Shown: positions 21,397 through 63,087, counted from the stretch's first letter. The stretch is 64,000 nucleotides of DNA from an uncultured Methanosarcinales archaeon (GCA_964647565.1 CAZYIM010000002.1:69222-133221), one strand, 5' to 3'. Notes: generated from the sequence alone by a model not told the origin. A program made the numbers and translations.

Positions 21397-21444
21397 ATTA
21401 TTGATTCACCTATTCCAATATAAATAATTTTCCCCCGGATGAAA

Positions 21445-34938: not shown

Positions 34939-35029
34939 AAGAAATGGTTTGAACTATTTAAAGCTTAGGATAGTCACACTAAAATCACATCAAAAATTAT
35001 TTATAGTATTTAGGCGCAGTTTAAATCTG

Positions 35030-35797
35030 ATGAAAAAACTAAAGATTGGCATCTTCTCTTTTACATCCTGTGAAGGCTGCCAGATAATCATGATAAATGC
35101 CAAGGAGCTTTTTGGAAAGCTCTTTGAGATAGTGAACCTGGCCCACCTGCCAATAATACAGGAGAAAAACCAGGAAGGTCCGTATGATGTTGTCTTTGTC
35201 GAGGGTGCAATAACCTTCAAGAAGCAGGTCAAGGTGTTGCAGGATCTGAGAAAACAGGCCAAATACTTAATAGCTTTTGGCACATGCGCGACCTTTGGAG
35301 GCGTCAGTGCAATCCGTGATCTTGACAGGGATTTTCGCGATAAGGATATCTTCAAGGAATTTAATTTTCTAGATACTTTGAATGTTCGAAGCCTGGATAA
35401 TCATGTCAAGGTTGATTATCATCTTCGAGGCTGTCCGCCGACACATGATGAATTCATAAGAGTCATTGAGTCCCTGCGCAAAAAATCTTTTCCAGAAGAG
35501 TATGAGAAAGCTGTTTGCGTTGAATGCAGGAAAAAAGGAAATCCTTGCCTGTTGGCTAATGGGCAGCAATGTCTGGGCCCTGTCACTTGTGGCGGCTGTG
35601 ATGCGCTTTGTACATCAAAAGGTATTGTCTGTTATGGGTGTCGTGGGCCAGTAAAAAAGGCCAACATGGATAGATTGGTAAGGCTCTTTGAGAAGAGAGG
35701 ACTGACTGCAAGACAGATTGCAGAGATGTTCATGATCTTTGCAGGCACATCCAAAAGATATGAGAAATTCGTGAAAAAAGTATGGCAGAAACAATAA
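35030..35797 (+). CDS. [NiFe] hydrogenase small subunit (group 3b delta-like)
   Basis: SCEGC, VEGA, FGTCA.FGG, GCPP, CVEC, CLGP...GC...C...CYGCRG motifs. Confidence 0.9.
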   Translation: MKKLKIGIFSFTSCEGCQIIMINAKELFGKLFEIVNLAHLPIIQEKNQEGPYDVVFVEGAITFKKQVKVLQDLRKQAKYLIAFGTCATFGGVSAIRDLDRDFRDKDIFKEFNFLDTLNVRSLDNHVKVDYHLRGCPPTHDEFIRVIESLRKKSFPEEYEKAVCVECRKKGNPCLLANGQQCLGPVTCGGCDALCTSKGIVCYGCRGPVKKANMDRLVRLFEKRGLTARQIAEMFMIFAGTSKRYEKFVKKVWQKQ

Positions 35798-37038
35798 AAC
35801 TGAATTACCTGACCAAGATAGAAGGCCATGCCAAATTGGCAATCAAGATAGATAAGGGCAGGGTTAAAGATGTCAACCTGCAGGTCTTTGAGGGTGCGCG
35901 TTTCTTTGAGGGTCTTATAGAGGGCATGCAGGTCAAGAGGGCGCCAGTCATTACATCAAGGATATGCGGTGTCTGCAGCCAGGCGCATATCATTGCCTCG
36001 TATCAGGCGATAGAAACGGCCTTTGATATCAGGGTTACTAAGCAAACAAAGCAGATGAGGAAGCTATTGCTCTATTCCTCGATTGTACAAAGTCATGTAC
36101 TTCACGCCTTCCTTATGTGTCTTCCTGATTATTATAATATCAAGACAGCTGTTGATTTTGCCAGGAAACATGCATCGACAGTCAAGCTAGCATTGAAGAT
36201 CAAGAGCCTTTCTGGCAGGATATTGGAGATGATCGGCGGCAGAGAGGTGCATTCAGTAACCTGCAGGGTTGGAGGCTTTAAGATATTCCCATCGCAGCAA
36301 GCCCTGGACTGTCTCTTGCAATTGCTCAAAAAAGAGGTAAAACACATTTCATCTGAATTTGGCAGGCTGTTTCCCAAACTTCAAAATCCTGAGTTTGAGA
36401 GCAATACAGAGTTTGTTGCCTTGCAAAAAAACAAGATCAAGACCTCTTCTGGCAATAGCTTTGATATTGAGCAATATAGGGATATGCTTGATTTCTACAT
36501 AAAGAAGAATTCCAGCTCCAAGTTTATCACATTGGATGACAAGAAGCTGATGACATCTGCCCTTAGCAGGTTGAACATCAATAAAAAAAGCATGAACCCT
36601 CTTGCATCTGCTTTCCTGGCCAGACTCAATCTTAAGTTGCCAAGCAACAACCCGTTTGACAATGTCCAATGCCAGGCAGTCGAGATCATCCATTACCTGG
36701 AGGAGTGCATAACTATTCTTGAAAACATGAAGATTAGGCACCAGGAAAAGATTCAATTCAAGGCTAAAGGTGATGTAAAGGGTCTTTCTGCAGTTGAGGT
36801 TCCAAGAGGCGTCCTATTTCACGGATACAGGATAAAGGATGGACAGGTAAAGAGATGCCGTATCATAACGCCGACCACCCAGAACATCCAGAGCATCGAG
36901 GATGATATCAAAGCATTTCTGCCAATGCTGATGCACCTAAAAAAGGAGGAGATCATATTCAATCTCGAAAGACTTGTTAGGGCTTATGATCCTTGTATCA
37001 GCTGCTCGACGCACTTTCTGAAAGTAGAGGGATTATAG
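35782..37038 (+). CDS. [NiFe] hydrogenase large subunit (group 3b alpha-like)
   Basis: IEGH, RFFE, L1 RICGVC, EVPRG, L2 YDPCISCSTH plus short C-terminal extension. Confidence 0.92.
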   Translation: MAETIKLNYLTKIEGHAKLAIKIDKGRVKDVNLQVFEGARFFEGLIEGMQVKRAPVITSRICGVCSQAHIIASYQAIETAFDIRVTKQTKQMRKLLLYSSIVQSHVLHAFLMCLPDYYNIKTAVDFARKHASTVKLALKIKSLSGRILEMIGGREVHSVTCRVGGFKIFPSQQALDCLLQLLKKEVKHISSEFGRLFPKLQNPEFESNTEFVALQKNKIKTSSGNSFDIEQYRDMLDFYIKKNSSSKFITLDDKKLMTSALSRLNINKKSMNPLASAFLARLNLKLPSNNPFDNVQCQAVEIIHYLEECITILENMKIRHQEKIQFKAKGDVKGLSAVEVPRGVLFHGYRIKDGQVKRCRIITPTTQNIQSIEDDIKAFLPMLMHLKKEEIIFNLERLVRAYDPCISCSTHFLKVEGL

Positions 37039-39119: not shown

Positions 39120-39608
39120 ATGAGTGTGGATTTGAAAAGTGAGGTGATAAGTTTCAAGTTATCACTAATTTCAATTGTTTTTATAATGTTAATAACTGTA
39201 TTGTTTCTCAACGCACCTGGAATAAACAAGGGTCTTGCAGGAAGCGGAATTTCTTGTTCAGAAATCTGTGCTGAACGGTCTGGGAAAGATTTTTGTTTAC
39301 CTGAAAACGTAGGATGTGTCATTCCGCGAAGCAGTCATGTTAGTGCAGGAGACAGCTATTGTTCTGAAAAATTTAAATCTTCTGCTGTTTGCTGTTGTGT
39401 TGGCAAAGTTGACGCTTTACCTAGGCGAGATACAGATATTTCTGATGATCCAGATCCTGATGATCCAGATCCTGATGAAGCATTGTACTTCACAAAGCCT
39501 AGAGAAGATAACTCTTGTGCTGGTGGAACCCAAGCTGAAAGTTGTAATGCGGATCTTGATTCCTGCAGTTCTGGAAACAACATTCTTTTTAATGGAGGGT
39601 TTGAGTGA
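39120..39608 (+). CDS. membrane-anchored Cys-rich protein ending in the first strand of a CBM4/9-like domain
   Basis: N-terminal TM, many Cys, DDPDP repeat, C-terminus NNILFNGGFE. Confidence 0.7.
   Translation: MSVDLKSEVISFKLSLISIVFIMLITVLFLNAPGINKGLAGSGISCSEICAERSGKDFCLPENVGCVIPRSSHVSAGDSYCSEKFKSSAVCCCVGKVDALPRRDTDISDDPDPDDPDPDEALYFTKPREDNSCAGGTQAESCNADLDSCSSGNNILFNGGFE
39442..39478 (+). repeat. in-frame 15-nt tandem repeat (about 2.5 copies)
   Basis: CTGATGATCCAGATC x2 plus CTGATGA, encoding a DDPDP linker. Confidence 0.85.
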
Positions 39609-41614
39609 TGAAGTTAGCAATCCTGTTATTGACATTGTTGCTTGTTTATCCTGCTTTTGTGCTTGCTGCAACAGTAGGAGGCTCTTGTTCTTGTGAAGAA
39701 GTATCATCACATGATGAAGAATATGGAGGCATAGAAAGATCTTGTGAACTTGAATGCGACTGTAATCCTGGCTACAGATGGCCTAATACAGACTGTGAAT
39801 TGAGGCAGAATAAATGTGTTCCCACATCTAGTGGCGAAGGGCTAAATTGTATATGTGAGCCTTTTTGTGATTGGAGTGCTGCTGATGATTGTACTGCAAC
39901 AATGTGGGGGCGCTGCGGCGAAAAATGTGTCAGGGAAACTGAAGGCCTGTCTTGTAAGGAAGGTGCAGGAACTTGCCATTCTGGACAATGCATACCCCGA
40001 GGATGGAACACTCAAGGCAACCCCCAAGAAGTAAAATTAGTTAACTCGCCAGTATACAATGGAAAATCTGCCTTAAAACTGCAATTCGCCAATTCAAATA
40101 AATGGTCGGGAATGGTGTCTGATCTGGTTCCTTTAGAAAGCGATACCACATATATACTATCAGCACGTATGGCTATAAGCGAAAATTTCGTAGGCAAGTT
40201 TGAATTGCACAGGCAAGCCTTTCCAACTGCTGGCGACGTTGAAAAGAACGGTAAAAAGTCATGGCATCACTATACTATCATCGATGGAGACTATTATTTA
40301 ACTGAATCAGATAAAAAAAACATATGGATCAAGAAATGGGTAAAATTCAAGACAGATAGTTCTACCAGGCTAGGTAAAATATTCCTAATCTCAACAACTG
40401 ACTCTTTCACAGGAACAGTATATGTTGATGATGTTCGCCTTGAAAAAGTGGATGACAGTCCAGTCTTTTCTTTAAGACCTGACTGCAATCTTTGTGGCTG
40501 CCCTGGCGGAAGTTCCTGCTCTAGAACTGGAGAATGCGTTGCAAATGAAGTTGCAAGCCTATCTGATGACCTCGCCTTTAAAATTTTGGCTATTGATGCA
40601 AAATATAAGCCTTTTTGTGACGAAATATCCTCAGAATCCATGCGAGACCTGTGCGTAGATGATTTGGCAGTCTCAACCAAGGATTTTCTGGCGTGTGATG
40701 ACATAGCCAGCCCAGCCAAAAAAAGCTTTTGTAAGAACCGCATCTTCACGTTTCTTGAGAAAAGGTCTCCTGTCTGCGGCGACACAATTGTCGAAGGGGG
40801 TGAAGAATGCGAGTCTGATTCAGACTGCTCCCACATCTCAAGCGGTGTTTGCGGCGAATGCGTCTGCTACAAATCAGTAGAAATCAGTTTTTCTGGTCTT
40901 AAATCGACGAGGTCAGCAAAAATGGATGCAAACATATTTGCCAACATCGATGCTGGCGACCTTACAAATGGTATATATGTTGTAAAGCCTGTTGAAGTTG
41001 TATATGAAGAAGATTTATCCACCCTTAAATACCAGGGAAAACCCCTGCTAGGACCTTATGAGCTAGTGTCTGCAGTTGCAGACCCTTATTATCATACTTT
41101 TTCTTGTTTTGAGACGAAATGTGAGGGGCTGTGCAACCTTTTTGGCGCTACGAAGATCATGGATTTTTTAGCAAAAGGCTCTATGGCAATTGCAAAAGGT
41201 GTTCTTTGGTGGCTTCCTACACATTTTGATGATTGCTTTAAAAAAGGGGAACAATCAGAAGGTGCCTGTGATCTTGATGTAAAGGATAAAGACGGCAACC
41301 TAAAAGCTGGTTGGGAGTTTTTATCCAGGAAAAAGGATGTTAATTTCAAATGTAATGTTATGGGTACTTGGTTCAGAAGCTTAACTTCAGGCAAGGTTCC
41401 ACAATGCAAATATGCTGATCGGTTGTCTACTGAAATCAGGCAGAGCAGCTGCTATAGTATTATCAATGGTAATAATCTGGTTCTGTCTTTCCCAACTTAT
41501 TATGCTTTTCAGAATAGTCAGGGGCAGAATCTTGGCAGCTCAAAGACTTATTGGCCTAAAAAACCAGAAGAATATAAGTTTAGTTATACTGTTAGGGGTA
41601 TGGTGGTGCCATGA
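39605..41614 (+). CDS. secreted Cys-rich protein with CBM4/9-like galactose-binding module
   Basis: Signal peptide; PRGW...YNGKSAL...VYVDDVRL; CGDTIVEGGEEC cysteine-rich repeat. Confidence 0.75.
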   Translation: MMKLAILLLTLLLVYPAFVLAATVGGSCSCEEVSSHDEEYGGIERSCELECDCNPGYRWPNTDCELRQNKCVPTSSGEGLNCICEPFCDWSAADDCTATMWGRCGEKCVRETEGLSCKEGAGTCHSGQCIPRGWNTQGNPQEVKLVNSPVYNGKSALKLQFANSNKWSGMVSDLVPLESDTTYILSARMAISENFVGKFELHRQAFPTAGDVEKNGKKSWHHYTIIDGDYYLTESDKKNIWIKKWVKFKTDSSTRLGKIFLISTTDSFTGTVYVDDVRLEKVDDSPVFSLRPDCNLCGCPGGSSCSRTGECVANEVASLSDDLAFKILAIDAKYKPFCDEISSESMRDLCVDDLAVSTKDFLACDDIASPAKKSFCKNRIFTFLEKRSPVCGDTIVEGGEECESDSDCSHISSGVCGECVCYKSVEISFSGLKSTRSAKMDANIFANIDAGDLTNGIYVVKPVEVVYEEDLSTLKYQGKPLLGPYELVSAVADPYYHTFSCFETKCEGLCNLFGATKIMDFLAKGSMAIAKGVLWWLPTHFDDCFKKGEQSEGACDLDVKDKDGNLKAGWEFLSRKKDVNFKCNVMGTWFRSLTSGKVPQCKYADRLSTEIRQSSCYSIINGNNLVLSFPTYYAFQNSQGQNLGSSKTYWPKKPEEYKFSYTVRGMVVP

Positions 41615-44600
41615 TGAAATCGAGAATCGTGATTCTGGTCTTGATGTTGTTTTTGGTGTCTGCTGCTTTTACATCTGCTGACTTGATCTGTTCTGTTCCT
41701 GATTATGCTGGCGGGGCAGAATGGTCTGAAATGGCTTTGACTTTTATTGGAGAGGCAGCAACCAGCACTGCATCTGAATCTGTCAAAGTCGGCAGAATGC
41801 TTTTGAATGAAGTTCCTTTTCTCTATCTTTGTTCTCCTGGCATAGGCTTTTCATCATGCCCAAATGTGCTAGCCAACCATTATCCTGAGTTTGATGCATA
41901 CTGGGATAATTATCTGGAATTTGACCTAAAGCCACAAAGCAATCAATTCTATAGTTACAGTCATTTCTATCTTGCTGATTACGATGACATCATATCTGCC
42001 ATAGGATTTCCTTCCAGCTTTCCCTTGACTGCAAAGTTCTCTTTTGAAGCCAAGAATGATATTGATAGCTGTAGGGCTGATACAGAAATAACCTTTGTTG
42101 ACACTATTGAACCTTCGATAGATTATCTGTCTTCAATGTGCTCAAGTGCCAATTCAGCGAGTTTTGTCTTATTTGTCAGTGAGAATGTGGTTGGTGGTTC
42201 CGAAGGTGATCCTGTTTGGGGTGATCCTGTTTTTAGGGACATTACTGTGAACTTTGGTGATGGAACGACTAAGAAATACAACTCTGTCTCTGATCTTGAA
42301 TTTGATTCTCATGATTATGGTTCTGAAGGGGTTTATACTGCAACAGTCACCCTGACTGACCTTGGAGGCAATAGCGATAGTGAAACAACTATTGTTAAAT
42401 GTGGAGACCAGACAGTGAAAGCAGTGCTTACGGCACAAGACGAACAAGGTAACTTCTATTCAACTGATCCTGACTCCCAGTTTTATGCAGAAACAATTCG
42501 CTTAAACGCTGATGATGCTGCTGCTGATGAACTTGTATTCAGCATCGGTCAAAGCAAGCCTCATGCGCTGATCAGAGGATTTGAATTAGACTACGATTCA
42601 AGTAGTATTGATCTGGTGGATGTTGCTGATAAAACAGAGTATAATATTGATTTCTCGAGATATGCTAATCATGATTTTAAACGTAGATATACGTCAGGGG
42701 GTCATTATTATGCTGTATTGATGGTTGAGGATTCCTATTTAACTCCTGATTTTGCCTCTTTTGAGCTTATTGTTTCTGGTTCTGGTAGTGGTGGGGAAAT
42801 TGGCGGCGCTGGATCGGATAATGATTTCACCCCTCCAACCCATGAGCCTCAAGCAAAATCTTTTTGTGTAGTTGATGAAGATTGTGGTATAGGATCTGTA
42901 TGCTATAACGGCAAATGCGTATCCTTGGACCTAAACAAGCATGCTTGCAAAGAGTCAGACGGATATCGAAAATTTTGTGATGAAAGCGTATGTATTGACA
43001 ATCCAACATACAATCATCCTGATATTGCTGCTACCCTGATGGCCAGCCCTCCAAGATATGATACTTGCGGTTGTATGGGCGGTAGTAGTTTTACAGATGA
43101 TTCTTCGAAATGTGCGTCTTTTACTCATGTTAAAGAGTTCTCTTGTGGTGCAGGAAGCAATGTAGATTCTGAGGTGAAAGTTTGTTCTGCTGATAAGACT
43201 TGTATACAGACGGTGTTTGGTGGTGAGTGTAGGCCTAAATCTAGTGCTCAAGTCTTGATTTTACAGACCACTCATGACAGCCCTGATAAGATGTTTGAGA
43301 ACACAGCAGAACACCTTAGAAAAGATGCCCTGGCCAGGGGATATGCTCCTGAAAACATTTATGTCAGGACCATGTCTGTCAAACAAGACATTGTAAACAA
43401 AATAAATAGTTTTTCAAGTCCATTGTCTGAACTCATATTCATCACGCATGCTTGGATTAGTGATGATCCTGCGCCTGCTAATTCAATACTGGATACTTAT
43501 GGTGGTTCTTTGCTTGCAGGTAAAACAAATGGTAAGACAACGCCTGACAGTATCCTCAGGGCTATTCATGTTCCTGGGTTTGTGAAGAACTTGAAGCCAG
43601 GAATAATAAATGATAAGACCATAACCACATTCCAGGCTTGTCATTCTGGTGGTGGAAAAAGCTGGAGTGAACGCTTTGCATCTATTTCTGAATCTGAATT
43701 GAAAGACCGTACTCGTAATGCAGACAGGTCTATTGCCAGTATTTGGGCTAAATACACTGATAGCTATGCTCTTGGACCGCCTGGCGGAACCCTTTTTCTG
43801 CAGCTAGATGATGAAAAGAGATTAGTGGCTGTTGATGAGTATTATTGGCATTATATTGAGGGGGGTGGTGTGAATGGCAAGAGATACTCCCAGGAGGGAA
43901 TCTCTTATTTTGAGGCCCTCAAGAAATATGCTCTTGCACCTCGTGAATGGAATATATTTGGTCCTGATGGTAAATTGATTCCTATTGAGCAGGATAATGT
44001 AGTCACTATGTCTGTCAATGAACGTTTTGATATAGATATCCATGATTCCTATTTTACTGTGAAGTATGATGGTAGTGTGAGTCCTGATGGCAAGTTTGAT
44101 ATCTTGTTGACCTATGGTGAGACTGTAGGCTTGTGTAATCTTGGAGAGACTCCTGGGTTTGGTTGTTTATTAGATCCCTCCAATATATTTGACACCATTG
44201 TAAATTCTCCTGATATGAGTTCGTGTGGTGATTTTACTGATCATCTTGTCAGTGCAGTGGATGCTGATGGTCAGTTTGTTGATGTGATAGAGCATGCTGA
44301 ACTGATTGAGCGCGTTGAGAATGAGTTTTTTGTGACCATGCTTGAACAAGCAGGATACACTTCTTCAGATCTTACATTTGAAGATTATGGACATGGGCAA
44401 ATAACAGGCGCAGTTACTGGTTTAAGTTCACTTATCTTTTCCAAGAAAAAACTAAAATTGATCAGCACGGTTATGTATGGTGAAGTCGGTGCTAAATCAA
44501 CAGATGTCTTTTTTTCAATGCTTAATGTCGCAAAAGCCTATGCGTCTGGCCAGGATAAAAACCAAGCCATATACCTGCTCAAATCAGACATGAAGCTATT

Positions 44601-47600
44601 CTTGACTTGTGTCCAAAAACAATTGACTCATTTGGATAAGCTTGAATTTGAGAAAGAGAGTGAGTGGGAGTCGATTGGATTTAATTCTGATGTTCAATAC
44701 AAGCATGTTGATTATTCGAGAAGTGTCCGAGCAGAGGTTGTCAAGGCAGACCTTGCTGGCGCAGTTTTTGATATTGTAAGGTCTGATGAGTATGATGGGC
44801 GTTCTGCTGGCGAGTTGGTCCGATCTAATCTGGGAATGGTTGCTGCAATGAACGGCGTCAATTATGATACGAGCGGTAATCCCAGTGAGCTTGTGATCAG
44901 GAACTCGGAAATCGTCAAGGATTTTGCTGGTTCTAATGAAGTCCGAGATCCTGAAAATTCTGGTGTAATCGGCATATTGAATGATGGTTCTGTGGTGGGT
45001 TTTAGGGGTGATGAATATTTGGCTTTGCCTGATTCAGAGAAGAAAAAATTTAAGTTCGGGGTTCAGGGCAAGCTGCTGGTACATAAGAGTCTTGTAAACC
45101 CTGTCCTTGCTGCTAATGAGATGGATGTCAATTATATGACTCACAGGAGCACTGTGTGTGTGACTGCTGAGGGTGAATTGCAGCTTATCAACTTTCGAGC
45201 TTCTGACCTGACAGATAGCACTGCAACTGAAGCTCTGGGCTTTATAAGAAAGCTCGTAGGTGTCAGTCTTTTTGAGGCTGCCCAACTGTTGGTTTCTGAC
45301 GAATATGGTTGTGAATATGCAATCTCCTTAGATGGAGGTACTAAGTCTAGTTTTGGTGCTAGGAATAAAGTTACTATATCTGGCGTTTCTTCACCAACAT
45401 ATCTTGTCATGTATGAGGATATGGACGCTATTGCTCCTGTATACCCTAGTGCTGAAGAGTTCAAAACAGCTCTTAAAGATGCAGATGATAAGATGACAAC
45501 GCTTACAACTGTAATAGGTAATCAGGATGCGAATAGTAATCTAAAAGATGTTCTTGACTCAACCAATAACCTTGGTGATGTTAACATACAGGTTTTAAGA
45601 TTGCAGAACGGCCTGGATAAGTTTTTTAATGATCCTGAGTATTCTGATTATCTGAAAAGATCTGATGTTTATTTTAACAAGGATTTGAAAAAATATAACT
45701 CATATGATTTCTATTTCATGCATCTTTTGTCTTCGGCACAAAGATTGATGGTCTGGATGCACTCTGATCAGGGCGAGGATGCATTTAAGGACCAGTATGC
45801 TTCTGATTATGAATCAGTCATAGAGGACACTGTTTTACAATTAAGAACGTTTATCAACGTGCTTTATAATCTACTTTCTCTTACAGCAGAGAACTGTAAT
45901 GCTCTTAAGGAATGTCAGGATTCTGTTTTCAATCATGGTAGCAACGATATGAATATTATTTCAATCTCTAGTCCTCTTCTCGAAAATTTTGATAGTTTCG
46001 ATGGAACTATTCTAAGATATTTTGAAACATCTTCGAAAAATCCTCCTTTTAATTCTGCCTTAGTGGAGTCCCCCATTCAAATGAAGACCTATATCCTTGA
46101 CCCCCTTAAAACTGCTGATGATCCAACAAAACTAAAGCTATTTAGAGTTTTGAATTTGCTCTTTGAATCTGCATCGGTTGGCAAGTATTACGGACCCTGG
46201 AGTGTAACTTATGAAAGAGCAGGACGAAGCTTAACAGAAGCAATATTAATAGGTCTGAAAAGTGAAAATGATGATGTAAAATTGTCTGCTTTGAACTTGT
46301 TTTCCACGCTGGTATCTGATAATCCACCTTTTAAGGTCTTATTACTTAAAGGTACAAGTTCATGGGATATCTCGAGGCAATATTATGACATCCTTTTTGA
46401 ATTAGCCAAAGGTGATGACCTGCGATATGTGGACCCTGCTCTGGATTGCCTGGAACATATGCTGGCAGGAGTGCCCTCCTCTGAAAGCCAGGATTTCTCA
46501 CCAGGATTTCAGCAGGAAGTACAATACCCTAACCTAGATAAAGCATACGCTGAATTGATTAACTATCTGGAGGATCCTGATGCTAATGCTGCTGTTGTTG
46601 AAAAAATAGCAGGATTATTTGATACATTGTTCAAGCATTTTAAAACATTTAATGGTTTCAAATATGACTACATGATGGATTCTCAAGAGGAAATATATAT
46701 CAATCGTCAAGAAATGCATAGAAAAGTCATATCAGTCCTGACAGACAGATTGACATATGAAGAGAGTGATTTCACCAGAAATAAGCTTGCTATGGCTTTA
46801 CTCTCTGCAGGAGAGGTTGACAGTATTTTTGGGGAAAGCATAAATGACCTGATGAAAACCAAGATAACTGAGTTATTAAGTGCAACTTCAGATGAGAACA
46901 TAGATTATTATACAAATTTTCTTGCCCCGATGTTATCTAATATCCCTCAGAAATCGATGACTGAGATTGCAGGCCCGTTATTTGAAGGTATTGACTTCGA
47001 ATTATCTATAGAAACTACCCATCCTGGAACCCATCGAATCTTCAAGATCCTCAAAAAGCTAGCTGAAAAGATGAGCCCCAAAACAAAAGTCAGGTCCAAA
47101 CAATTTTATGATGATATAATTGTTCAATTATTCGACATAATCAAATCTGAATCAGTACCTATTGAACAGAAAAGGCTGGCTTTTGAGGCTGTCTATGATG
47201 CATATATGAGTGCAGAAGGTGAATCTGAGGGTGGATGGAGTGTGAAAATAGTAAAACTTTTGCCTTTCAAGAAACAAATCCAGGAATTCAGTCAAGATGA
47301 AGTTGTTTCACATAGAGCTCTCCACCTTCTTGAAATAATAGATTCATATGAACAGGAATTAAAAAGTGATGACTTCAATGCAGCTTATATTACCAGGCAG
47401 GACATTGCTGAAGCAATGGCCATAGTCTTTTCAGAAGGCCTATTTTTTAGAGGTGAGCATAACTCTGATGTTGAACCCACAGAATCCCAAAAACAAATAG
47501 CCATGTTGATGGCGAACTGGGCAAGGAATCGGGCTTTATCTCGTGTCTGGCCAAACTCGCTTCACGAAGTTGGTGATAAAAGGCATATTTTTGGATATTA

Positions 47601-48237
47601 TCAAAGCAAAGTCATACCTATTTTCGTTGCATACGGTATACTCACAGAGGAAGATCTGAAATCAAAAAAGGTTCTTTGGTCTTATGTCAAAACCACTTAT
47701 GTATATACACATGTAATAAGTGGATTAAGAACTATTGATTTTGAAAGCAAATGGTACAAAGGTATTGAAGACGCAGTCATATATGGATTGACTCATGAGT
47801 ATGATCAGCTTCCTGGCATCAAGTGCTTTAAACCGCCTGTTTATTTTGGCGAGGACCTAGTCCGACCCCGTGATAAATGTACTGCCAAAATCGTTTCTAA
47901 TAAACTTCTCAACAGGGCGTGTGAGGGTCCGGGAGAAGGCGGGACATTCAAATCTGAGGTTTACGGAGATTTCCATTTTCTGGCAGAGTTCCCTGGCAGG
48001 ATAAATGCATTTGATACCGGCAAACTTAAAGATCTTCGGGCATCTTACTGCTTGCCGTGTCCAAAAACAAATGCAGATTATTTTGATGGCAGGCCTTATG
48101 TGACTTGGAAATTGAATACCCCTATTGATGAATGGATTTATAAATCAGACCATAATGATGATTTACTGAAATGTTGGAACCTTGGTAAGCCTGAATATTC
48201 CAGATTCATAAAACGGACCGAAGTTAGGGGTGGATAA
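41611..48237 (+). CDS. giant secreted multidomain protein (PKD, Cys-rich, caspase-like H/C dyad, NAGPA-like, helical repeats, SleB-like)
   Basis: Signal peptide; NFGDG..HDY...GVYT; ITHA..QACHSG; AAMNG..RS.V..LDGG; IVFSEG..MANWARNR..WP. Confidence 0.75.
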   Translation: MMKSRIVILVLMLFLVSAAFTSADLICSVPDYAGGAEWSEMALTFIGEAATSTASESVKVGRMLLNEVPFLYLCSPGIGFSSCPNVLANHYPEFDAYWDNYLEFDLKPQSNQFYSYSHFYLADYDDIISAIGFPSSFPLTAKFSFEAKNDIDSCRADTEITFVDTIEPSIDYLSSMCSSANSASFVLFVSENVVGGSEGDPVWGDPVFRDITVNFGDGTTKKYNSVSDLEFDSHDYGSEGVYTATVTLTDLGGNSDSETTIVKCGDQTVKAVLTAQDEQGNFYSTDPDSQFYAETIRLNADDAAADELVFSIGQSKPHALIRGFELDYDSSSIDLVDVADKTEYNIDFSRYANHDFKRRYTSGGHYYAVLMVEDSYLTPDFASFELIVSGSGSGGEIGGAGSDNDFTPPTHEPQAKSFCVVDEDCGIGSVCYNGKCVSLDLNKHACKESDGYRKFCDESVCIDNPTYNHPDIAATLMASPPRYDTCGCMGGSSFTDDSSKCASFTHVKEFSCGAGSNVDSEVKVCSADKTCIQTVFGGECRPKSSAQVLILQTTHDSPDKMFENTAEHLRKDALARGYAPENIYVRTMSVKQDIVNKINSFSSPLSELIFITHAWISDDPAPANSILDTYGGSLLAGKTNGKTTPDSILRAIHVPGFVKNLKPGIINDKTITTFQACHSGGGKSWSERFASISESELKDRTRNADRSIASIWAKYTDSYALGPPGGTLFLQLDDEKRLVAVDEYYWHYIEGGGVNGKRYSQEGISYFEALKKYALAPREWNIFGPDGKLIPIEQDNVVTMSVNERFDIDIHDSYFTVKYDGSVSPDGKFDILLTYGETVGLCNLGETPGFGCLLDPSNIFDTIVNSPDMSSCGDFTDHLVSAVDADGQFVDVIEHAELIERVENEFFVTMLEQAGYTSSDLTFEDYGHGQITGAVTGLSSLIFSKKKLKLISTVMYGEVGAKSTDVFFSMLNVAKAYASGQDKNQAIYLLKSDMKLFLTCVQKQLTHLDKLEFEKESEWESIGFNSDVQYKHVDYSRSVRAEVVKADLAGAVFDIVRSDEYDGRSAGELVRSNLGMVAAMNGVNYDTSGNPSELVIRNSEIVKDFAGSNEVRDPENSGVIGILNDGSVVGFRGDEYLALPDSEKKKFKFGVQGKLLVHKSLVNPVLAANEMDVNYMTHRSTVCVTAEGELQLINFRASDLTDSTATEALGFIRKLVGVSLFEAAQLLVSDEYGCEYAISLDGGTKSSFGARNKVTISGVSSPTYLVMYEDMDAIAPVYPSAEEFKTALKDADDKMTTLTTVIGNQDANSNLKDVLDSTNNLGDVNIQVLRLQNGLDKFFNDPEYSDYLKRSDVYFNKDLKKYNSYDFYFMHLLSSAQRLMVWMHSDQGEDAFKDQYASDYESVIEDTVLQLRTFINVLYNLLSLTAENCNALKECQDSVFNHGSNDMNIISISSPLLENFDSFDGTILRYFETSSKNPPFNSALVESPIQMKTYILDPLKTADDPTKLKLFRVLNLLFESASVGKYYGPWSVTYERAGRSLTEAILIGLKSENDDVKLSALNLFSTLVSDNPPFKVLLLKGTSSWDISRQYYDILFELAKGDDLRYVDPALDCLEHMLAGVPSSESQDFSPGFQQEVQYPNLDKAYAELINYLEDPDANAAVVEKIAGLFDTLFKHFKTFNGFKYDYMMDSQEEIYINRQEMHRKVISVLTDRLTYEESDFTRNKLAMALLSAGEVDSIFGESINDLMKTKITELLSATSDENIDYYTNFLAPMLSNIPQKSMTEIAGPLFEGIDFELSIETTHPGTHRIFKILKKLAEKMSPKTKVRSKQFYDDIIVQLFDIIKSESVPIEQKRLAFEAVYDAYMSAEGESEGGWSVKIVKLLPFKKQIQEFSQDEVVSHRALHLLEIIDSYEQELKSDDFNAAYITRQDIAEAMAIVFSEGLFFRGEHNSDVEPTESQKQIAMLMANWARNRALSRVWPNSLHEVGDKRHIFGYYQSKVIPIFVAYGILTEEDLKSKKVLWSYVKTTYVYTHVISGLRTIDFESKWYKGIEDAVIYGLTHEYDQLPGIKCFKPPVYFGEDLVRPRDKCTAKIVSNKLLNRACEGPGEGGTFKSEVYGDFHFLAEFPGRINAFDTGKLKDLRASYCLPCPKTNADYFDGRPYVTWKLNTPIDEWIYKSDHNDDLLKCWNLGKPEYSRFIKRTEVRGG

Positions 48238-48438: not shown

Positions 48439-48634
48439 ATCCTGCTGATGGAGGACAGGCTCTTTTTTATGTTTTGTTGTTTATTCTTCCTGATTTTAAC
48501 CATCAGATAGTGGTGAAATGCAAAAGATTTAAATATCACTCTTTATTCTCTTTAATCTTCTCGGGCAAGAAATGATGCTAGGTATAGTAATTTGTCTTAG
48601 CATCAATCATATAGAAATTTTAAAAGGTGAAAAA

Positions 48635-49135
48635 ATGGAAAACAAAACAAATGTCTATACACATTTTGAAGTTAAAGCCCGACCAAAAAAGGTCAAAGAT
48701 TTTGAACAGAGACTTGCATCTGTAGAAGGTGTGAAGGTATTGCAAAGTATTAAAAGTACATTTGGCTGGTTTTATGATGGCGTGATCTATGGTCCTGAAA
48801 ATGCTGTCAGCAGTGTTGCTGAAAATGTTAAGCTGCTGCAGAATAAAACTTTTAAGAGAATAAAACTTAATCTGCATTTGGTGAGAGCTGATCCTCAGCG
48901 TGGAAGCGACTATCCCTTAACTAGGTTAGAGGCTATAAACTCTGAATTAGACCATATGTTCGAACAAACTGCAGACCTGAGCGCTAACGTAGATCTTGAT
49001 TTTAAAAGCAGGGGCAGTAGTAGTGCGGGTTGCTTAGACGGTTATGTTATGGGTGAGCCTGAATCAGTATTAAAAATCTATAATTTCCTTGAAGCGAAAG
49101 GTGATTGTCGGCTGGAGATGTCATATCTGAAGTGA
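48635..49135 (+). CDS. hypothetical protein
   Basis: GGTGA Shine-Dalgarno; two loosely repeated DG.I/V.G.E units. Confidence 0.6.
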   Translation: MENKTNVYTHFEVKARPKKVKDFEQRLASVEGVKVLQSIKSTFGWFYDGVIYGPENAVSSVAENVKLLQNKTFKRIKLNLHLVRADPQRGSDYPLTRLEAINSELDHMFEQTADLSANVDLDFKSRGSSSAGCLDGYVMGEPESVLKIYNFLEAKGDCRLEMSYLK

Positions 49136-55747: not shown

Positions 55748-56977
55748 ATGAAGCGAGAAATAGACATACATAACTACCAAAGAAGGCTTGAATCAGCTGT
55801 GAAGCTGGTTGAAAAGTCTAAGATTTCTAGACGGAATAAAGAATTGATCTTTGCGTTTAGAGACTTTGCTTCTCTGGATGGGCTCTCTGTGGCTCGAATT
55901 GAAAGGTATTTAGGAGTTATGAAAGACTGGGCATTACTTCTTGGAAAAGACTTTGATAAGGCCACAAAAGAAGATATTATGCGAGCTGTTCGGGCTGTGC
56001 AGGAAACAGAGAAGTATTCACCCTGGACAAAATCCACATATAAGACGATGTTGAAGAGGTTTTTTAAATGGCTAAAGAAAGAAGAGAATCCTGAGGAGAT
56101 AGCCTGGATAAAATGCAGGATAAAGCTGACTGAGAAGAGACTTCCCCAGAACAATGACTTATTGACAGAGGAAGAGGTTCAAAAGCTGGTTTCTCTGGCA
56201 GAACACCCTAGAGACAAGGCCTTTATCGCTACTTTATACGAGTCAGGCACTCGAATCGGCGAATTGGCATCTTTACAAATCAAGAACATAAACTTCGACG
56301 AATACGGAGCAGTCCTGAATGTTCACGGAAAAACAGGCTCAAGGCCCGTCAGAATAATCTCCTCAACACCCCATCTTGTTACATTGCTACAAAACCACCC
56401 ACTCAGAAACGACCCAACAGCACCCCTCTGGATATGCATAGGGACAACCAACCACAACAAACCCCTCAAATACCAAAGCATAAGAGTAATGCTAATGCGA
56501 CTCTTTGAAAAAGCCCAGATCAAGAAAAGATTTAATCCGCATATGTTCCGGCATTCTCGAGCAACATTTCTAGCCGACCACCTCACAGAGTTCCAAATGA
56601 ACCAATACTTTGGTTGGATACAAGGCTCAAAAATGCCCTCGACATATATTCATATGTCAGGCAAGAAGATCGACAGCTCGATATTGGCTCTGAATGGGAT
56701 TGAACAGAAGGAAAACCACAAAGAAAGCAAGCTAAAGCCGAAAATCTGTCCTAGATGTGATACAATCAACACGAGTGAAGCGAGGTTTTGTACTAAGTGT
56801 GCGGGGATATTGGATTTGAAGACCGCTCAGGAACTAGAAAAAAGAAATAAGGATGAACGAAAAATTAGAGATAAGAGCGACAACATCATGCAGGACTTGC
56901 TGAGTGATAAGGAGTTTTATGATCTGTTTATCAAGAAAGTCAAAGAACTAAGGCTGAAAGAGAGGATGATAACCTAA
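55748..56977 (+). CDS. tyrosine recombinase/integrase with C-terminal zinc ribbon
   Basis: YESGTRIGE, GKTG, HMFRHSRAT, FGW...M...Y.H catalytic residues; CPRC..N...FC..C. Confidence 0.93.
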   Translation: MKREIDIHNYQRRLESAVKLVEKSKISRRNKELIFAFRDFASLDGLSVARIERYLGVMKDWALLLGKDFDKATKEDIMRAVRAVQETEKYSPWTKSTYKTMLKRFFKWLKKEENPEEIAWIKCRIKLTEKRLPQNNDLLTEEEVQKLVSLAEHPRDKAFIATLYESGTRIGELASLQIKNINFDEYGAVLNVHGKTGSRPVRIISSTPHLVTLLQNHPLRNDPTAPLWICIGTTNHNKPLKYQSIRVMLMRLFEKAQIKKRFNPHMFRHSRATFLADHLTEFQMNQYFGWIQGSKMPSTYIHMSGKKIDSSILALNGIEQKENHKESKLKPKICPRCDTINTSEARFCTKCAGILDLKTAQELEKRNKDERKIRDKSDNIMQDLLSDKEFYDLFIKKVKELRLKERMIT

Positions 56978-56984
56978 AAAAAGC

Positions 56985-57096
56985 ATTTTTGTCAATAATT
57001 TATGTGTTTATTTATAAAGAAGTTGTCAAAAATCAAGAGAAAAAGTAGATATTTTTGTCAAAAATATTTTGTTTATTTATAAAGGACTTGTCAAAA
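56985..57096 (+). repeat. two ~46-nt direct repeats carrying four TTGTCAA boxes
   Basis: ATTTTTGTCAA...TGTTTATTTATAAAG...TTGTCAAAA at 56985 and 57051. Confidence 0.75.
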
Positions 57097-57137
57097 TTAC
57101 CGAAACATTTAAATAGTTAAGGAGAACACCCATAACA

Positions 57138-58621
57138 TGGCCATATTCGATATAAGTCAATTATCTGAACAAAATCCCTGGTGGGTTGACGTAAATAGCA
57201 TAGTAAAAGATATTAAAATCAGTACTCTAAATAAGCTAAAGTATCAATGGGATCCAAACCTTAGACACTACATTCGATTGGATACAGATGTAATCTACAC
57301 GATTAGGGGACCAAGACAGGTAGGAAAAACTACCCTACTAAAAATCATCATCAGAGATCTACTGTTTAACAAAGAAGTAAAACCTGAAAACATATTTTTC
57401 TGGTCATGTGAACTGAATAGTGAAGATGAATTAAATAAGATAATCCAGACCTATTTGGATTGGAGACATAATGCTAAAAAAGAAAGAAAATACATCTTTC
57501 TAGATGAAGTCTGCGGTATAAAAAACTGGCCCAAAGAGATTATTTATCTTGCTAACAAAGGCGAATTTAAAAATTGTTCTGTGATATTAACAGGTTCACA
57601 TTCAATGGACTTAAAGCATTCTACGGAACTAATGCCTGGAAGAAGAGGGGGAGATGAAGATAATCCTTTGGATAAAATATTGCTCCCCATGAAATTCTCA
57701 GAGTTTGTACAACTGCTATGGCCAGAGTTCAAAGAGAAGATGTTCGATCACAACATAGTAAAAAAAGAAGATCGACATAACAAAATACTTCAACTATTTG
57801 AAGGAAAGCTTGATGATGATTTAAAGAACCTGATGCTTTACAAAAAACAGCTAGACTCACTTCTAGATATTTACCTCATAACAGGAGGCATTCCTGCAAC
57901 AATCAATGAACTAAAGGCCACAAGCAAACTATCTCCAAGATTATTTAATATTTATCTAACTTCAATAATTGGCGACCTAAATAGATACAACTACAAAGAG
58001 CATTATTTCAAACAACTAATGAGAGAAATATTCAACACAATATCAAATCCAATAAGCTGGAACAGCTTTACTAAAAACACAGAAGTAAAATCCCATAACA
58101 CAGTCCAAGAATACATTACAGCATTAGAAGAGCTTTATATTGCCAACTGCTCATACAGATGCTCAATACATGACAAAAGAATACACCCTTTTATGAAAAA
58201 GATATATGTCCAAGATCCATTCATATTTCACGCTCTGCATGGATGGTCAAATGGAAAAAAAGATTACTTCCAAAATGCAAAAGCTAACATCCTAAATCTA
58301 GAAACAAAAAGCAAATTGGTAGAAAGTGTTGTCTATAATCACCTGTGCAGACTTGCTTTTGGTCTTAATCCGAAAGACCTCTTTGATCCCAAAGACCACA
58401 TCTGCTATTACGAGGACAAAAGCAAAAAAGAAGTAGATTTTGTTCTCCTATTTGACGAAAAATACTATCCCTTCGAGGTCAAATACCAATCAACAATAAA
58501 TAACCAAGATTTTTATGCATTCAAGTCATTTAACAAAGGAGTACTGATAACCAAGAATGAGCTTGGAATATACAGGAACTATGCTCAGATACCCGTATCC
58601 TTGTTTTTAATGATGATATAA
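57138..58621 (+). CDS. AAA+ ATPase with DUF4143 / PD-(D/E)xK C-terminus
   Basis: QNPWW, GPRQVGKTT, FLDEV, LTGS, GG.P, EVDF..FEVK motifs. Confidence 0.92.
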
Positions 58622-58647
58622 ACTAAAGTTTCAACTAATTCATAGTC

Positions 58648-60312
58648 ATGGATTTTAACAAAAAAAGATATCAAAAATATAGACCTATAATAAATAAGAC
58701 TGTACATAGATTGTTAAAGGAAGATAGATTTGATTTCGATGTTGGTTATTCTTTTATTAACGTTGACGATCACGTATTTTTTGGATTAGATGTCAATCAA
58801 TTTGTGGATGAATTTTTCAAGAAAAAATATTTCACTAAACCTAAATATAGAAACTACAAATACGTATTTTTCATTAGTCGATCATTTCCAGATGATTTCT
58901 TAAAAAAAGAAAAAGTAACCACAATAGATTTTCCACCTGTATTAATGAGGAACTTGAAAGTAAAGACCCCTCTTTCTATAACTGATCTACTCAGACTTAA
59001 TGATTCTGTGCTTAAACACTTTCCTCTTATGTATTTCTTAAGATCGATTTATGACAACAAATACAATGCAGATCAGCAGATGTTAGATTCCGGTGATTTT
59101 GAAAAAATCTTGGAATCTGGACAAAAAAAGAAAATTGCTGATATAATGAAATATGTTGATATGATTTCGAAATCACATCAGAAATCATTCAAGAATGGAA
59201 CAAATCTAAAATATGTTTGTCAAAAATACTGTTTACAAGATTATTTTTCTAAAAAATCGAATTTAAACAGCATATTGAGCAATGAGAAATTTATTATAGT
59301 GCATGCTCCTAGATCTCATCCCGATGATACCATAAGGCCAAATGTTATGTCACTTCTATTGTATTACATCTCTGAATTCAATAGAAACAACAAACAAGAT
59401 ACCATTTTTTTTATAGATGATATTCATCTTTTCACAAACAAATATAGCGACTGTAGAGTAAACCACGCCAGCATATTCAGAATGGCTTTTAATAGCGTAA
59501 ATAATCGTGATCCTCTAGCTGAAAGACCTGATGAAAAAATTGAACACTTATTTCATTTCAATATTTTTACAAATAACTTGTTCGATTTTGGAGAGAAAGA
59601 AGAAGAAATCGGCGACAGAATTTCCTTTTTACTCAACTTTAACGAAAAAATAATATTTAATATCAGCACATATTTCTATAATATTTTATTAAAATATTAT
59701 TCTTCAGAGCTTGGTTTTATCGCAAGATTAAATAAATTGGGTCAAGATATAAACGAGTATTGGGATGATGCAAATAATGGTAATGAACATGATGAGTATC
59801 CATTCATGCTAGAATATTATGACTATCATGCTTCAAGCAGCAGTTTTAATCCATACATAACACCTATTGACTTCGATAAATATCCATTAAATGAAAAAAT
59901 CCTTAACTCAATAATTCTGTCAAGGGAAATTTTAAATCTTGAATTTAAGCTTAACTTTAAAGGCTGCAAAAACAGAATAAAACAAAATGTAATAGGTATG
60001 CTTAGATCAAAAGGAGGCAACATTATTATTGGAATCGAAAATAAAATGAAAGCACCCATTGGTATAACTTTAAAAGAAGAAGGTAATTTTAATAGACCTA
60101 GTGAACTCTGTGATAATATGATGGAGTTCATATCAAGTAACATAAAACCCTTACCTCCTCCAGAAAATATCAGAATACATAATTTTACAATAAAAGATAA
60201 TTTGTTCATTACGATAACCGTTCTAGGTGATAAAGATACTATATATTATGATAATAAGGGACAGACATGGAAGAGACTTGATGGAATAAATAAACAATGT
60301 CATAAAATCTAA
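58648..60312 (+). CDS. protein with C-terminal Schlafen/AlbA_2 domain
   Basis: E..NLEFK...GM..SKGGNIIIGI motif; N-terminal region with Walker-B-like IFFIDDIH. Confidence 0.75.
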   Translation: MDFNKKRYQKYRPIINKTVHRLLKEDRFDFDVGYSFINVDDHVFFGLDVNQFVDEFFKKKYFTKPKYRNYKYVFFISRSFPDDFLKKEKVTTIDFPPVLMRNLKVKTPLSITDLLRLNDSVLKHFPLMYFLRSIYDNKYNADQQMLDSGDFEKILESGQKKKIADIMKYVDMISKSHQKSFKNGTNLKYVCQKYCLQDYFSKKSNLNSILSNEKFIIVHAPRSHPDDTIRPNVMSLLLYYISEFNRNNKQDTIFFIDDIHLFTNKYSDCRVNHASIFRMAFNSVNNRDPLAERPDEKIEHLFHFNIFTNNLFDFGEKEEEIGDRISFLLNFNEKIIFNISTYFYNILLKYYSSELGFIARLNKLGQDINEYWDDANNGNEHDEYPFMLEYYDYHASSSSFNPYITPIDFDKYPLNEKILNSIILSREILNLEFKLNFKGCKNRIKQNVIGMLRSKGGNIIIGIENKMKAPIGITLKEEGNFNRPSELCDNMMEFISSNIKPLPPPENIRIHNFTIKDNLFITITVLGDKDTIYYDNKGQTWKRLDGINKQCHKI

Positions 60313-60356
60313 AAGATAGAATAAATTTAAAAACAACAAATAAATCTTCATACACT

Positions 60357-61316
60357 ATGGCTTCAAATTTGCATGACAATCATATTTCTATTAATACAAC
60401 GAGAGAAATCGATCATTTATGGAATTGGTTAGATACCTTAACAAATAAAACGTTAGTTAGAAAATTATTGAACGAGCGTATAGATAATAATTTTTATATG
60501 GATAAAGATGCATGTCTAACATCTATTAAAGAACTTAATAAAAAACTAGTTGACAAAAATAATTTGTATGATATTAAATTTATTGAGAAAGAAAATATTA
60601 ATAACACCTTAATCTCAGAGATCATCAATTCCGCTAAACAAGCAAAAGAATTATTTCAAAAAGCCAGAGAATCTTCAATTCTTGTTCAGCCATTATTATA
60701 TTTATATGGAACGGAAGCACTTGAACGATGCTTAATTCTAATGACTTTTCAAAAAAACAATGATTCTCAATCACACGGACTTGCACTTTCTTCAAGTAAA
60801 AGTGGTTGTACGATTCGACAGAAAGGTTTTTTCCAATTAGTTCATTTTTGTGTATCCACAGACCAATCTATATTTTATAAGGATTGGTATAAAATGAATC
60901 TAAAAGATCTGTTCTATTTAAATCCTGAGTTAATTTATGTATATGAGTATATCTATGACTCGCCTCATCAACAAATTAAAGAATGGAATAAACAGAGTCA
61001 AAACAAACAATTAACAATTGATTTAGAATTTGATAGACATTTACCTATACATAAAAATTCCATCAATTTTGAATATATTGATATATTACATATTACTTGT
61101 TTTATTTTAAGTACTTATATGAGATATGCACCAGGCAGTTGGATTGCTTTTTTAGAAAATTCTAATGAAGGCCATTTAGCAAAAATATTTTTAACAATAT
61201 ATCCAAGAAGAATGCCGAACTTAATACTAAATTACATTTATGGAAAAAAATTCTTAATCGCTCCAACTGCAAGATTTGGTGGTGAGATAAAATCTAAGTT
61301 TCTTAAAAAATCTTAA
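60357..61316 (+). CDS. YaaC-like protein
   Basis: QA.E.F..A...PL.LY.G, SHGL, LS..MRY.P..W motifs. Confidence 0.7.
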   Translation: MASNLHDNHISINTTREIDHLWNWLDTLTNKTLVRKLLNERIDNNFYMDKDACLTSIKELNKKLVDKNNLYDIKFIEKENINNTLISEIINSAKQAKELFQKARESSILVQPLLYLYGTEALERCLILMTFQKNNDSQSHGLALSSSKSGCTIRQKGFFQLVHFCVSTDQSIFYKDWYKMNLKDLFYLNPELIYVYEYIYDSPHQQIKEWNKQSQNKQLTIDLEFDRHLPIHKNSINFEYIDILHITCFILSTYMRYAPGSWIAFLENSNEGHLAKIFLTIYPRRMPNLILNYIYGKKFLIAPTARFGGEIKSKFLKKS

Positions 61317-61378
61317 TGACCAAATCGTATTACATTCTCCGAGTTCTCTTTATCTATTAACGTGACCTTTCTCTAACT

Positions 61379-61573
61379 ATGATCAAAACCCATACAATAA
61401 AATTCTTAGTTGAGGAAGAGCAATTTGACAGAATCAAACGCAACGCTTCTCTGAAAGGCCATAAGACCATATCTTCTTACCTTCGCCATTTGGCTTTGGA
61501 GCATGATTATTATTTTGAGAACTTGATCTTTGAGATCCACAAGGAGGTGGTTCGGAATGGAAGAAAGCCTTGA
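61379..61573 (+). CDS. small ribbon-helix-helix DNA-binding protein
   Basis: IKF.V...QF.RI...A...G..TISSYLR..AL. Confidence 0.7.
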   Translation: MIKTHTIKFLVEEEQFDRIKRNASLKGHKTISSYLRHLALEHDYYFENLIFEIHKEVVRNGRKP

Positions 61574-61631
61574 GTTTGAGATTCCTGAATGGATTAAAAT
61601 CCTTCAGAAGGTATTAGAAGATGACGAATGA
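61557..61631 (+). CDS. 24-aa small ORF MEESLEFEIPEWIKILQKVLEDDE
   Basis: Strong GGAGGTG Shine-Dalgarno; overlaps both neighbours. Confidence 0.45.
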   Translation: MEESLEFEIPEWIKILQKVLEDDE

Positions 61632-62877: not shown

Positions 62878-62928
62878 AACAATCCCTTCTACGCCATAAA
62901 AAGAGATTATATGTATATATAAGCCAAC

Positions 62929-63040
62929 GGCTGCACAAGCGGACTCAAGCCGCCAAACAGCCAAATTCGGGCATTACAGACCAGACAACAGCTGCACTCT
63001 CTTTTATAAATAAAAGAGGCAGCTGTATGGACGGTTGTAA
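62929..63040. other. intergenic structured region with two hairpins
   Basis: GGCTG..GCGG/CCGC..CAGCC and ACAGCTGC..CTCTTTTA/TAAAAGAG.GCAGCTGT. Confidence 0.55.
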
Positions 63041-63087
63041 AACGGAGACGATAAACATAATCTATAAACAGAGAATAAGCAACTAAA

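Follow-up and report, generated by a model that had tools for sequence, protein, structure and literature searches.

A giant archaeal protein of a small, separate family carries a NAGPA-fold domain and two cryptic enzyme-type domains and is encoded beside an AmiA-like amidase gene

We analysed a stretch of 64,000 nucleotides (nt), hereafter the window, from a genome listed as an uncultured Methanosarcinales archaeon (GCA_964647565.1, CAZYIM010000002.1:69222-133221). The window contains a giant open reading frame (ORF) on the forward strand, P0001 (41611..48237), which encodes 2208 amino acids (aa). P0001 belongs to a small family of its own that has two cryptic enzyme-type domains, one of them clan-CD-like, and conserved synteny with genes for enzymes predicted to act on N-acetylmuramic acid (MurNAc). 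We lean towards reading it as a secreted modular enzyme that would degrade bacterial peptidoglycan together with the product of a linked amidase gene, a function predicted from sequence.

P0001 is an intact gene of a rare family

P0001 starts with ATG, has no internal stop codon, and shares 4 nt at its start with the end of the upstream gene. Four marine or seawater metagenome runs from two studies, which may be the source samples of the locus, contained short contigs of low depth that matched it at 99% or more without an indel or joint. The ORF is confirmed as real and intact. A word-indexed search of 5.8 billion proteins returned a sole match, a 2207-aa protein at 100%. Direct reading of the translation reproduced the motif positions given in a preliminary description made from the DNA alone: ITHA at residues 611-614 (nt 43441), QACHSG at residues 675-680 (nt 43633), and IVFSEG at residues 1938-1943 (nt 47422). 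Residues 1-25 (41611..41685, + strand; MMKSRIVILVLMLFLVSAAFTSADL, read directly from the translation) form a signal peptide-like segment, and the products of P0001 and the three upstream genes all start with a hydrophobic, signal-like segment as read by eye, which is consistent with export.

The host genome (G000; 2.68 Mb in 86 contigs, 87% complete) is archaeal, and its small- and large-subunit ribosomal RNAs had their best scores with archaeal Rfam models. Genomes of its order span 0.6-2.1 Mb, a pattern typical of DPANN archaea.

Relatives of P0001 were few. Two of 41 genomes matched in a survey of the same order (40 relatives plus G000), namely G000 itself and one genome with a weak match to the PKD part, and beyond that match no sequence relative of P0001 was found among the 40 relatives. 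Four hundred sampled genomes of the phylum yielded no member besides G000. An exhaustive search among representative proteins, covering residues 1290-2208, returned one true match, a 407-aa protein (P0003) that is an internal-Met fragment of a giant ORF (L045 2-5203) running off a contig end. A profile scan of species genomes located this gene with 341 further codons, encoding at least 2074 aa, in a Nanoarchaeota-type metagenome-assembled genome (MAG; G414, locus L046). The case of P0003 illustrates that length-filtered searches can overlook such families when gene calls are fragmentary. Among relatives of G414, 3 of 61 genomes matched: G414, G419 (a 71-residue Cys-rich match), and G421, another Nanoarchaeota-type MAG, whose full-length protein (L051; 2313 aa, with a signal peptide) is the third family member. 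In the order of G414, the family occurred in 2 of 240 genomes.

The three members were collinear from the caspase-like domain to the C-terminus. Their N-terminal parts were unrelated, being PKD-like in P0001 and containing CarboxypepD_reg in the G421 protein (E-value 4e-9). Both homologues have a C-terminal extension of about 130 residues that is absent from P0001.

The best-conserved domain resembles clan CD peptidases

Residues 543-800 (43237..44010, +) are the best-conserved part of the family, with 45-47% identity between P0001 and its homologues and 92 invariant positions. The caspase/gingipain-like dyad proposed in the preliminary description, H613 and C677, is spaced by 64 residues; H613 lies in TH[AG]WISDDP and C677-H678 in CH[SG]GGG.SW.E, and these residues were invariant in all three members. 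No clan CD hidden Markov model (HMM) matched P0001 or either homologue, and the domain had no NCBIfam or PDB sequence match. In an hhalign comparison with a Peptidase_C14 profile made from 10 domains of same-phylum genomes (the family was present in 10 of 301 sampled genomes, with G000 unmatched), the domain scored 28.6 (P 0.003, probability 11%), above all of 150 column shuffles (mean 13.5, maximum 25.8); negative controls against other profiles scored 11.3-13.7. A single global path aligned the His, the Cys and the first strand to their C14 counterparts.

As in Peptidase_C14 (PF00656), the His precedes the Cys and each would lie at the end of a hydrophobic strand, and the hhalign path is collinear. 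Same-phylum C14 proteins read D-x-C-H-S-G at the Cys, to which A-C-H-S-G-G in P0001 is close. However, P0001 has H-(A/G)-W in place of S-G-H-G and lacks an HMM match, and its fold is putative. An AlphaFold2 (AF2) model of this piece from the single sequence had a predicted local distance difference test score (pLDDT) of 38.4, with only a beta-alpha-beta-alpha start at 50-55. The top clusters among its ESM-Atlas look-alikes, which serve as leads only, were unnamed; the cluster at rank 12 (0.88) carried Peptidase_C80 (PF11713) in 13% of its members and that at rank 23 (0.87) carried DUF4347 in 30%. The five matches of the piece in the 400 phylum genomes (E-values 0.004-0.04, 11-15 bits) were at about chance level. 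We regard a clan-CD-like fold of residues 543-800 as likely. The proposed dyad gained support from the invariance of its His and Cys and from their register with Peptidase_C14, although it found no HMM match and no usable structure.

P0001 had been proposed to be a self-processing polyprotein resembling polymorphic toxins, in which the clan-CD-like domain would cut the chain in cis and free wall-lytic C-terminal modules from an anchored N-terminus. MARTX and large clostridial toxins carry C80 protease domains that cut their own chain in this way. The His-then-Cys domain of P0001 lies between binding and enzyme modules and is the best-conserved part of the protein, and its look-alikes include the Peptidase_C80 (0.88) and DUF4347 (0.87) clusters, all of which would fit such a role. 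However, these scores are below 0.9 and are leads only, a cleavage site is not known, and the analogous 1452-aa protein of another genome of the same order (G249, described below) has a papain-type C39_2 peptidase at the same place, suggesting a substrate-directed peptidase. The hallmarks of polymorphic toxins were also missing. The C-terminus is conserved (26-36% identity) and the N-termini are unrelated, which is the reverse of the polymorphic toxin arrangement; no conserved immunity-type gene lies downstream, the conserved neighbour being an AmiA-like amidase gene; and C-terminal domain swapping was not seen among the three members, which are too few to exclude it. Self-processing is, in our view, unlikely, and we prefer to read the peptidase-like domain as part of a secreted wall-degrading enzyme.

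The NAGPA-like domain has an altered sugar-phosphate loop

Residues 1075-1254 (44833..45372, +) belong to the NAGPA-like phosphodiester-glycosidase fold. This assignment is secure at the level of sequence profiles: PF09992 scored 43.3 bits with the whole protein and 49.3 bits with the piece against a cut-off of 25, confirming the domain named in the preliminary description. Identity between P0001 and its homologues was 31-32% in this domain. Like the NAGPA/DUF2233 phosphodiester glycosidases (PF09992; accessible text of PMC13474241), P0001 keeps the N-G, R-S and D-G-G positions. It differs from them in that the last 19 model positions are unmatched and the DGGGS loop is replaced. The loop reads DGGTK in P0001 (residues 1241-1245) and DGGSKS or DGGSRS in the homologues, giving DGG[ST][KR]S for the family.

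The accessible text of PMC13474241 describes the DGGGS sugar-phosphate loop as invariant in NAGPA and reports that G289A and S290A abolish the activity of the human enzyme. NAGPA domains of phylum relatives kept DGGGS in 8 of 15 cases and lost it in 7. Given the altered loop, the domain of P0001 would be either a re-specified enzyme or a binding module. The preliminary description counted three catalytic domains; each enzyme-type domain gained support, but possibly just two of them are catalytic, the third being a variant or a binding module.

NAGPA domains were present in 16 of 301 phylum genomes, often within large exported multi-enzyme ORFs. Six such ORFs were scanned, of which one combined Peptidase_C39_2, NAGPA and SLT, one Metallophos, GH3 and NAGPA (G096), one Metallophos with two NAGPA domains, and one NAGPA with GDSL; the remaining two had NAGPA alone.

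The C-terminal domain is a probable divergent relative of SleB

The C-terminal domain (residues 1916-2208; 47356..48234, +) consists of a divergent SleB/Hydrolase_2-like core with the putative catalytic residue E1942, followed by a conserved Cys-containing part. Invariant in all three members were E1942-G1943, the series M-A-N...N1973-R1974...S...W1980-P1981...E-V, and the motifs YFGED, EFPGR and YC..CP, and the whole domain had 64 invariant positions across the family. Identity between P0001 and its homologues was 26-29% in the SleB-like core and 33-36% in the rest of the C-terminus.

The C-terminus of P0001 had no Pfam match to Hydrolase_2 (PF07486) at E-values up to 10, and this region had no NCBIfam or PDB sequence match. 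A tblastn search of residues 1901-2208 against phages was also negative. The top Pfam match of the C-terminus of the G421 homologue was Hydrolase_2 (E-value 0.018, 16.1 bits, against a cut-off of 27). The three-member C-terminal alignment was compared by hhalign with a Hydrolase_2 profile made from 13 domains of same-phylum genomes (the family was found in 12 of 301 sampled genomes, with G000 unmatched), which gave a score of 33.3 (P 3.8e-4, probability 36%). None of 150 column shuffles reached this score (mean 12.7, maximum 19.0). The C-terminus of P0001 alone scored 23.5, a value reached by 1 of 200 shuffles. The local alignment spanned the helix-N-R-S..WP..L..V core, and the global path aligned the invariant Glu of A-E-G (E1942) to the Glu in the G-E of the family, thereby supporting the Glu of IVFSEG proposed in the preliminary description.

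The hhalign register of the single sequence pointed to E1949 as the catalytic Glu, which was rejected since E1942 is invariant in the homologues and E1949 is not.

In common with SleB/CwlJ hydrolases (PF07486), the domain has a Glu in x-E-(G/A), a putative helix ending in N-R, and S..(F/W)P.(T/S)(L/I)..V, in the same order. In contrast to them, it has 13-20 extra residues separating the Glu from the NR helix, about twice the total length, and a Cys-containing extension, and it scores below the Pfam cut-off. Among the ESM-Atlas look-alikes of the C-terminus, again leads only, two of the top three clusters (0.90-0.91) carried Hydrolase_2 in 16% and 27% of their members. AF2 with a two-sequence alignment gave a pLDDT of 31.5. 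We consider a SleB-like fold quite likely for this domain. The SleB-like region had been claimed together with its catalytic Glu; the invariance of E1942 and the profile-level match speak for the claim, while the match is below the Pfam threshold and no usable structure was obtained.

Variable N-terminal modules and a poorly conserved, probably helical region

A PKD/Ig-like module was assigned to residues 211-262 (42241..42396, +) by a PKD_4 match at residues 211-260. It scored 25.6 bits with the whole protein and 26.9 bits with the piece (E-values 1e-5 and 5e-6), just under the cut-off of 27, so that the PKD module of the preliminary description is borderline. The Cys-rich linkers also described there are present at residues 419-540 (42865..43230, +), where 14 Cys occur within 122 residues; matches of this stretch to DUF7107 and EB were weak (E-values 0.003-0.06). 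The middle region (residues 801-1060; 44011..44790, +) contains an FxVxYDxDxDG-type module in the three-member alignment, is enlarged in the homologues, and had no family match. A long, probably helical region (residues 1276-1915; 45436..47355, +), where the preliminary description placed HEAT-like helices, showed the lowest conservation in the family, with 14-16% identity between P0001 and its homologues, and just one weak match, to the helical-repeat protein P0004. Scans of the whole of P0001 gave no relevant NCBIfam match and no PHROGs match. A profile search of the PDB gave nothing but engineered gp41 constructs with SGGG linkers, dismissed as an artefact.

Genes for predicted MurNAc-specific enzymes adjoin the giant genes

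An AmiA-like amidase gene adjoins the giant gene in all three genomes. In the window it lies upstream of P0001 (37579..38967, +) and encodes 462 aa with a membrane or signal segment, an N-domain, and a predicted AmiA-like domain of the NlpC/P60-type MurNAc-L-Ala amidases at residues 243-450 (PF07313, E-value 1.5e-48). Downstream of its giant gene, G414 has a 217-aa gene, a 290-aa AmiA-like gene (E-value 3e-50), and a gene for NamZ, in this order. The 217-aa gene is homologous to a 194-aa gene downstream of the giant gene in G421 (45% identity), which in turn matched the N-terminal part of the AmiA gene of the window (31% identity); the G421 locus ends after this gene and the start of an AmiA-like gene. 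The N-domain and AmiA domain are encoded by one gene upstream of P0001 and by separate adjacent genes downstream in G414 (L046) and G421 (L051). NamZ in the G414 locus (L046 7786-9078; PF07075 and PF20732, E-value 1e-69) is an exo-beta-N-acetylmuramidase by family, and its presence in this MAG of about 0.6 Mb suggests MurNAc salvage by the archaeon. According to their family descriptions, AmiA and NamZ are both MurNAc-specific, which points to bacterial peptidoglycan rather than pseudomurein as the target.

We also considered whether P0001 may serve the envelope of the archaeon itself, as a housekeeping autolysin or remodelling enzyme. One Mur_ligase_M match in G000 would be in line with this idea, but the same family also matches control archaea without peptidoglycan, and G000 (87% complete) had no match to FtsW/RodA or to a penicillin-binding protein transpeptidase. 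Furthermore, the distribution of the family is patchy (2 of 240 genomes in the order of G414, and only G000 in the 400 sampled phylum genomes). A housekeeping role is accordingly highly improbable, and bacterial peptidoglycan remains the substrate that we favour.

Two further genes lie between the AmiA-like gene and P0001. The first (39120..39608, +) encodes a small Cys-rich protein of 162 aa with a hydrophobic N-terminal segment and without a family match. It starts 153 bases after the AmiA-like gene, its stop overlaps the start of the next gene, and it opens an overlapping three-gene run that ends with P0001. The second (39605..41614, +) encodes a 669-aa Cys-rich protein with a signal-like N-terminus, predicted to be secreted, with a weak carbohydrate-binding match, to CBM_4_9, below the cut-off (E-value 3e-4); its stop overlaps the start of P0001 by 4 nt. 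In G421, an upstream ORF likewise overlaps the start of the giant gene by 4 nt (L051 1-786 versus 783). The 669-aa gene and this ORF had no similarity by tblastn or blastp, and their likeness, seen by eye, is limited to the C-terminal tail. Downstream of P0001, the ORF at 48572-49135 matched no family and lacks a counterpart in L046 and L051, whose giant genes are followed by AmiA-related genes instead.

Paralogues of the 162-aa gene were found elsewhere in G000 (C2:34199, C2:42183 and C8:45861). Another ORF of 1292 aa in G000 (C2:35739-39614) is flanked by paralogues of the 162-aa gene and of the N-terminal part of the 669-aa one (C2:34199-42413; also C8:45861-46097). The leader genes may be a reusable cassette for several giant proteins.

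A proposed role in opening bacterial walls

In the model that we favour, a DPANN-type archaeon without peptidoglycan of its own would export P0001 via Sec, and the variable N-terminal Ig-like and Cys-rich modules would hold the protein to a surface. The conserved core would begin with a Cys peptidase similar to clan CD (H613/C677), followed by a domain of the NAGPA fold whose sugar-phosphate loop is altered, then by a helical spacer and, as its last part, by a muramidase or lytic transglycosylase of a divergent SleB/Hydrolase_2 type (E1942). P0001 and the product of the adjacent gene, a presumably secreted AmiA-like MurNAc-L-Ala amidase, may jointly open and dismantle bacterial peptidoglycan for attachment, killing or feeding. 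NamZ in the homologous G414 locus would allow use of the released MurNAc, and its presence in this one locus favours feeding as the purpose. We judge it somewhat probable that P0001 is such a secreted wall-degrading enzyme acting with the linked amidase.

Several observations weigh against this model. The NAGPA loop of P0001 deviates at exactly the two positions that inactivate the human enzyme when mutated. Both cryptic domains stay below the Pfam thresholds, hhalign gave them low probabilities (36% and 11%) over short aligned cores, and the AF2 models of the C-terminus and of the caspase-like piece were both unusable, leaving neither cryptic fold proven; we give the profile-profile results for the two domains moderate weight and do not take them as proof. 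In addition, Pfam recognised no peptidoglycan-binding domain (LysM, SH3, PG_binding) in P0001, and NamZ was not found by tblastn in G000 (87% complete).

A different possibility is that the enzyme-like domains are degenerate binding modules, and that P0001 is an attachment protein for episymbiosis, which would grip but not degrade the wall of a host, be it bacterial or archaeal. Such a function has been proposed for giant proteins of this kind (PMC8204110, in its accessible part), and it would suit the non-canonical NAGPA loop and the strong divergence of the SleB-like domain, which is below every curated threshold. However, the putative catalytic residues (His, Cys and Glu) do not vary among members that share 27-43% identity, and the locus is linked to a fully canonical AmiA-like amidase (E-value 1e-48) and to NamZ (E-value 1e-69). 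Pure attachment therefore seems rather improbable to us, and wall degradation the better account of the locus.

A more far-reaching version of the degradation model would cast the family as the archaeal equivalent of the autoprocessing multi-effector toxins of bacteria. Activated at the prey surface, a clan-CD protease would cut the giant chain and free a muramidase and a re-tooled NAGPA-fold enzyme, and with the AmiA-like amidase and NamZ the DPANN archaeon would lyse bacteria and feed on their MurNAc. We offer this as a speculation that is doubtful at present.

Other features of the window and the genome

Genes for the small and large subunits of a NiFe hydrogenase lie directly upstream of the locus (34949-37038). 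A signalling cluster on the reverse strand (14192-22143) contains two paralogous FIST-domain genes, a response-regulator-methyltransferase fusion, a KaiC-like ATPase and an aldehyde dehydrogenase/LuxC-like gene, and a histidine-kinase ATPase gene lies opposite it. At 55748-64000, G+C falls from about 0.41 to 0.30, and a tyrosine integrase (PF00589) precedes an AAA_14/DUF4143 ATPase, a Schlafen AlbA_2 protein and a YaaC-like protein; this part looks like an integrated element or defence island. At least 24 open frames in the whole genome reach 1200 aa or more; among them are frames of 5053, 4699, 3875 and 3179 aa, and many of the 24 have signal-like starts. This load of surface proteins is unusually large for the order, and the genome is about twice the size of those of its relatives.

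Relation to known wall-targeting proteins

Giant murein-cutting proteins of DPANN archaea have been described as fam00969, with up to 3000 aa (accessible text of PMC8204110), and giant DPANN murein hydrolases are also reported in the part of PMC9723730 that was available. Homologues of peptidoglycan hydrolases occur in 175 of 3,706 archaeal genomes and are prominent in Nanoarchaeota, according to the accessible text of PMC12352652. P0001 resembles the fam00969 proteins, which were proposed to bind or degrade bacterial walls, in being giant (those reach about 3000 aa), probably secreted, and equipped with candidate domains for cutting bacterial walls. Unlike them, it has no SLT/GH23 domain (no PF01464 match at E-values up to 1), its glycan-cutting candidate being the cryptic SleB/Hydrolase_2-like domain, and it has in addition a clan-CD-like putative peptidase and a domain of the NAGPA fold. 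P0001 lies outside the families described there.

A parallel in architecture was the Peptidase_C39_2, NAGPA and SLT protein of G249 (L043; G249:C14, ORF 4442-8797, 1452 aa), which has a Cys peptidase, NAGPA and a glycan-strand cleaver in the same order as the candidate domains of P0001. Its peptidase and glycan cleaver come from families that are not homologous to those of P0001, and by analogy of domain order we regard it as a functional analogue built from different families. Modular NAGPA proteins of the same order differ from P0001 in that most keep the canonical DGGGS loop.

P0001 can also be compared with the modular archaeal peptidoglycan hydrolases (PMC12352652) and with the TelC and NAGPA (with or without NlpC/P60) conflict proteins of Bacillota (PMC12419801), which, as far as the accessible texts go, are secreted, patchily distributed, domain-shuffled and wall-targeting, features that P0001 would share. 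The Bacillota proteins combine NAGPA with wall peptidases, as the P0001 locus would. However, in the accessible parts of these sources both groups are defined by recognisable catalytic and wall-binding Pfam domains, and P0001 would escape such a screen. No description of the exact architecture of P0001 was found in the literature searched, supplementary tables of the cited papers aside.

The family brings no new principle, as many giant DPANN murein hydrolases are already in the literature. That some DPANN archaea attach to bacteria or prey on them is hinted at in their genomes mainly by giant wall-cutting proteins, and Pfam-based screens miss members of this kind, two of whose three enzyme-type domains are invisible to curated models. 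The family adds to this picture a module resembling Cys proteases and a conserved link to MurNAc-specific salvage enzymes, so that the choice between attack and feeding would become testable with a defined four-gene locus.

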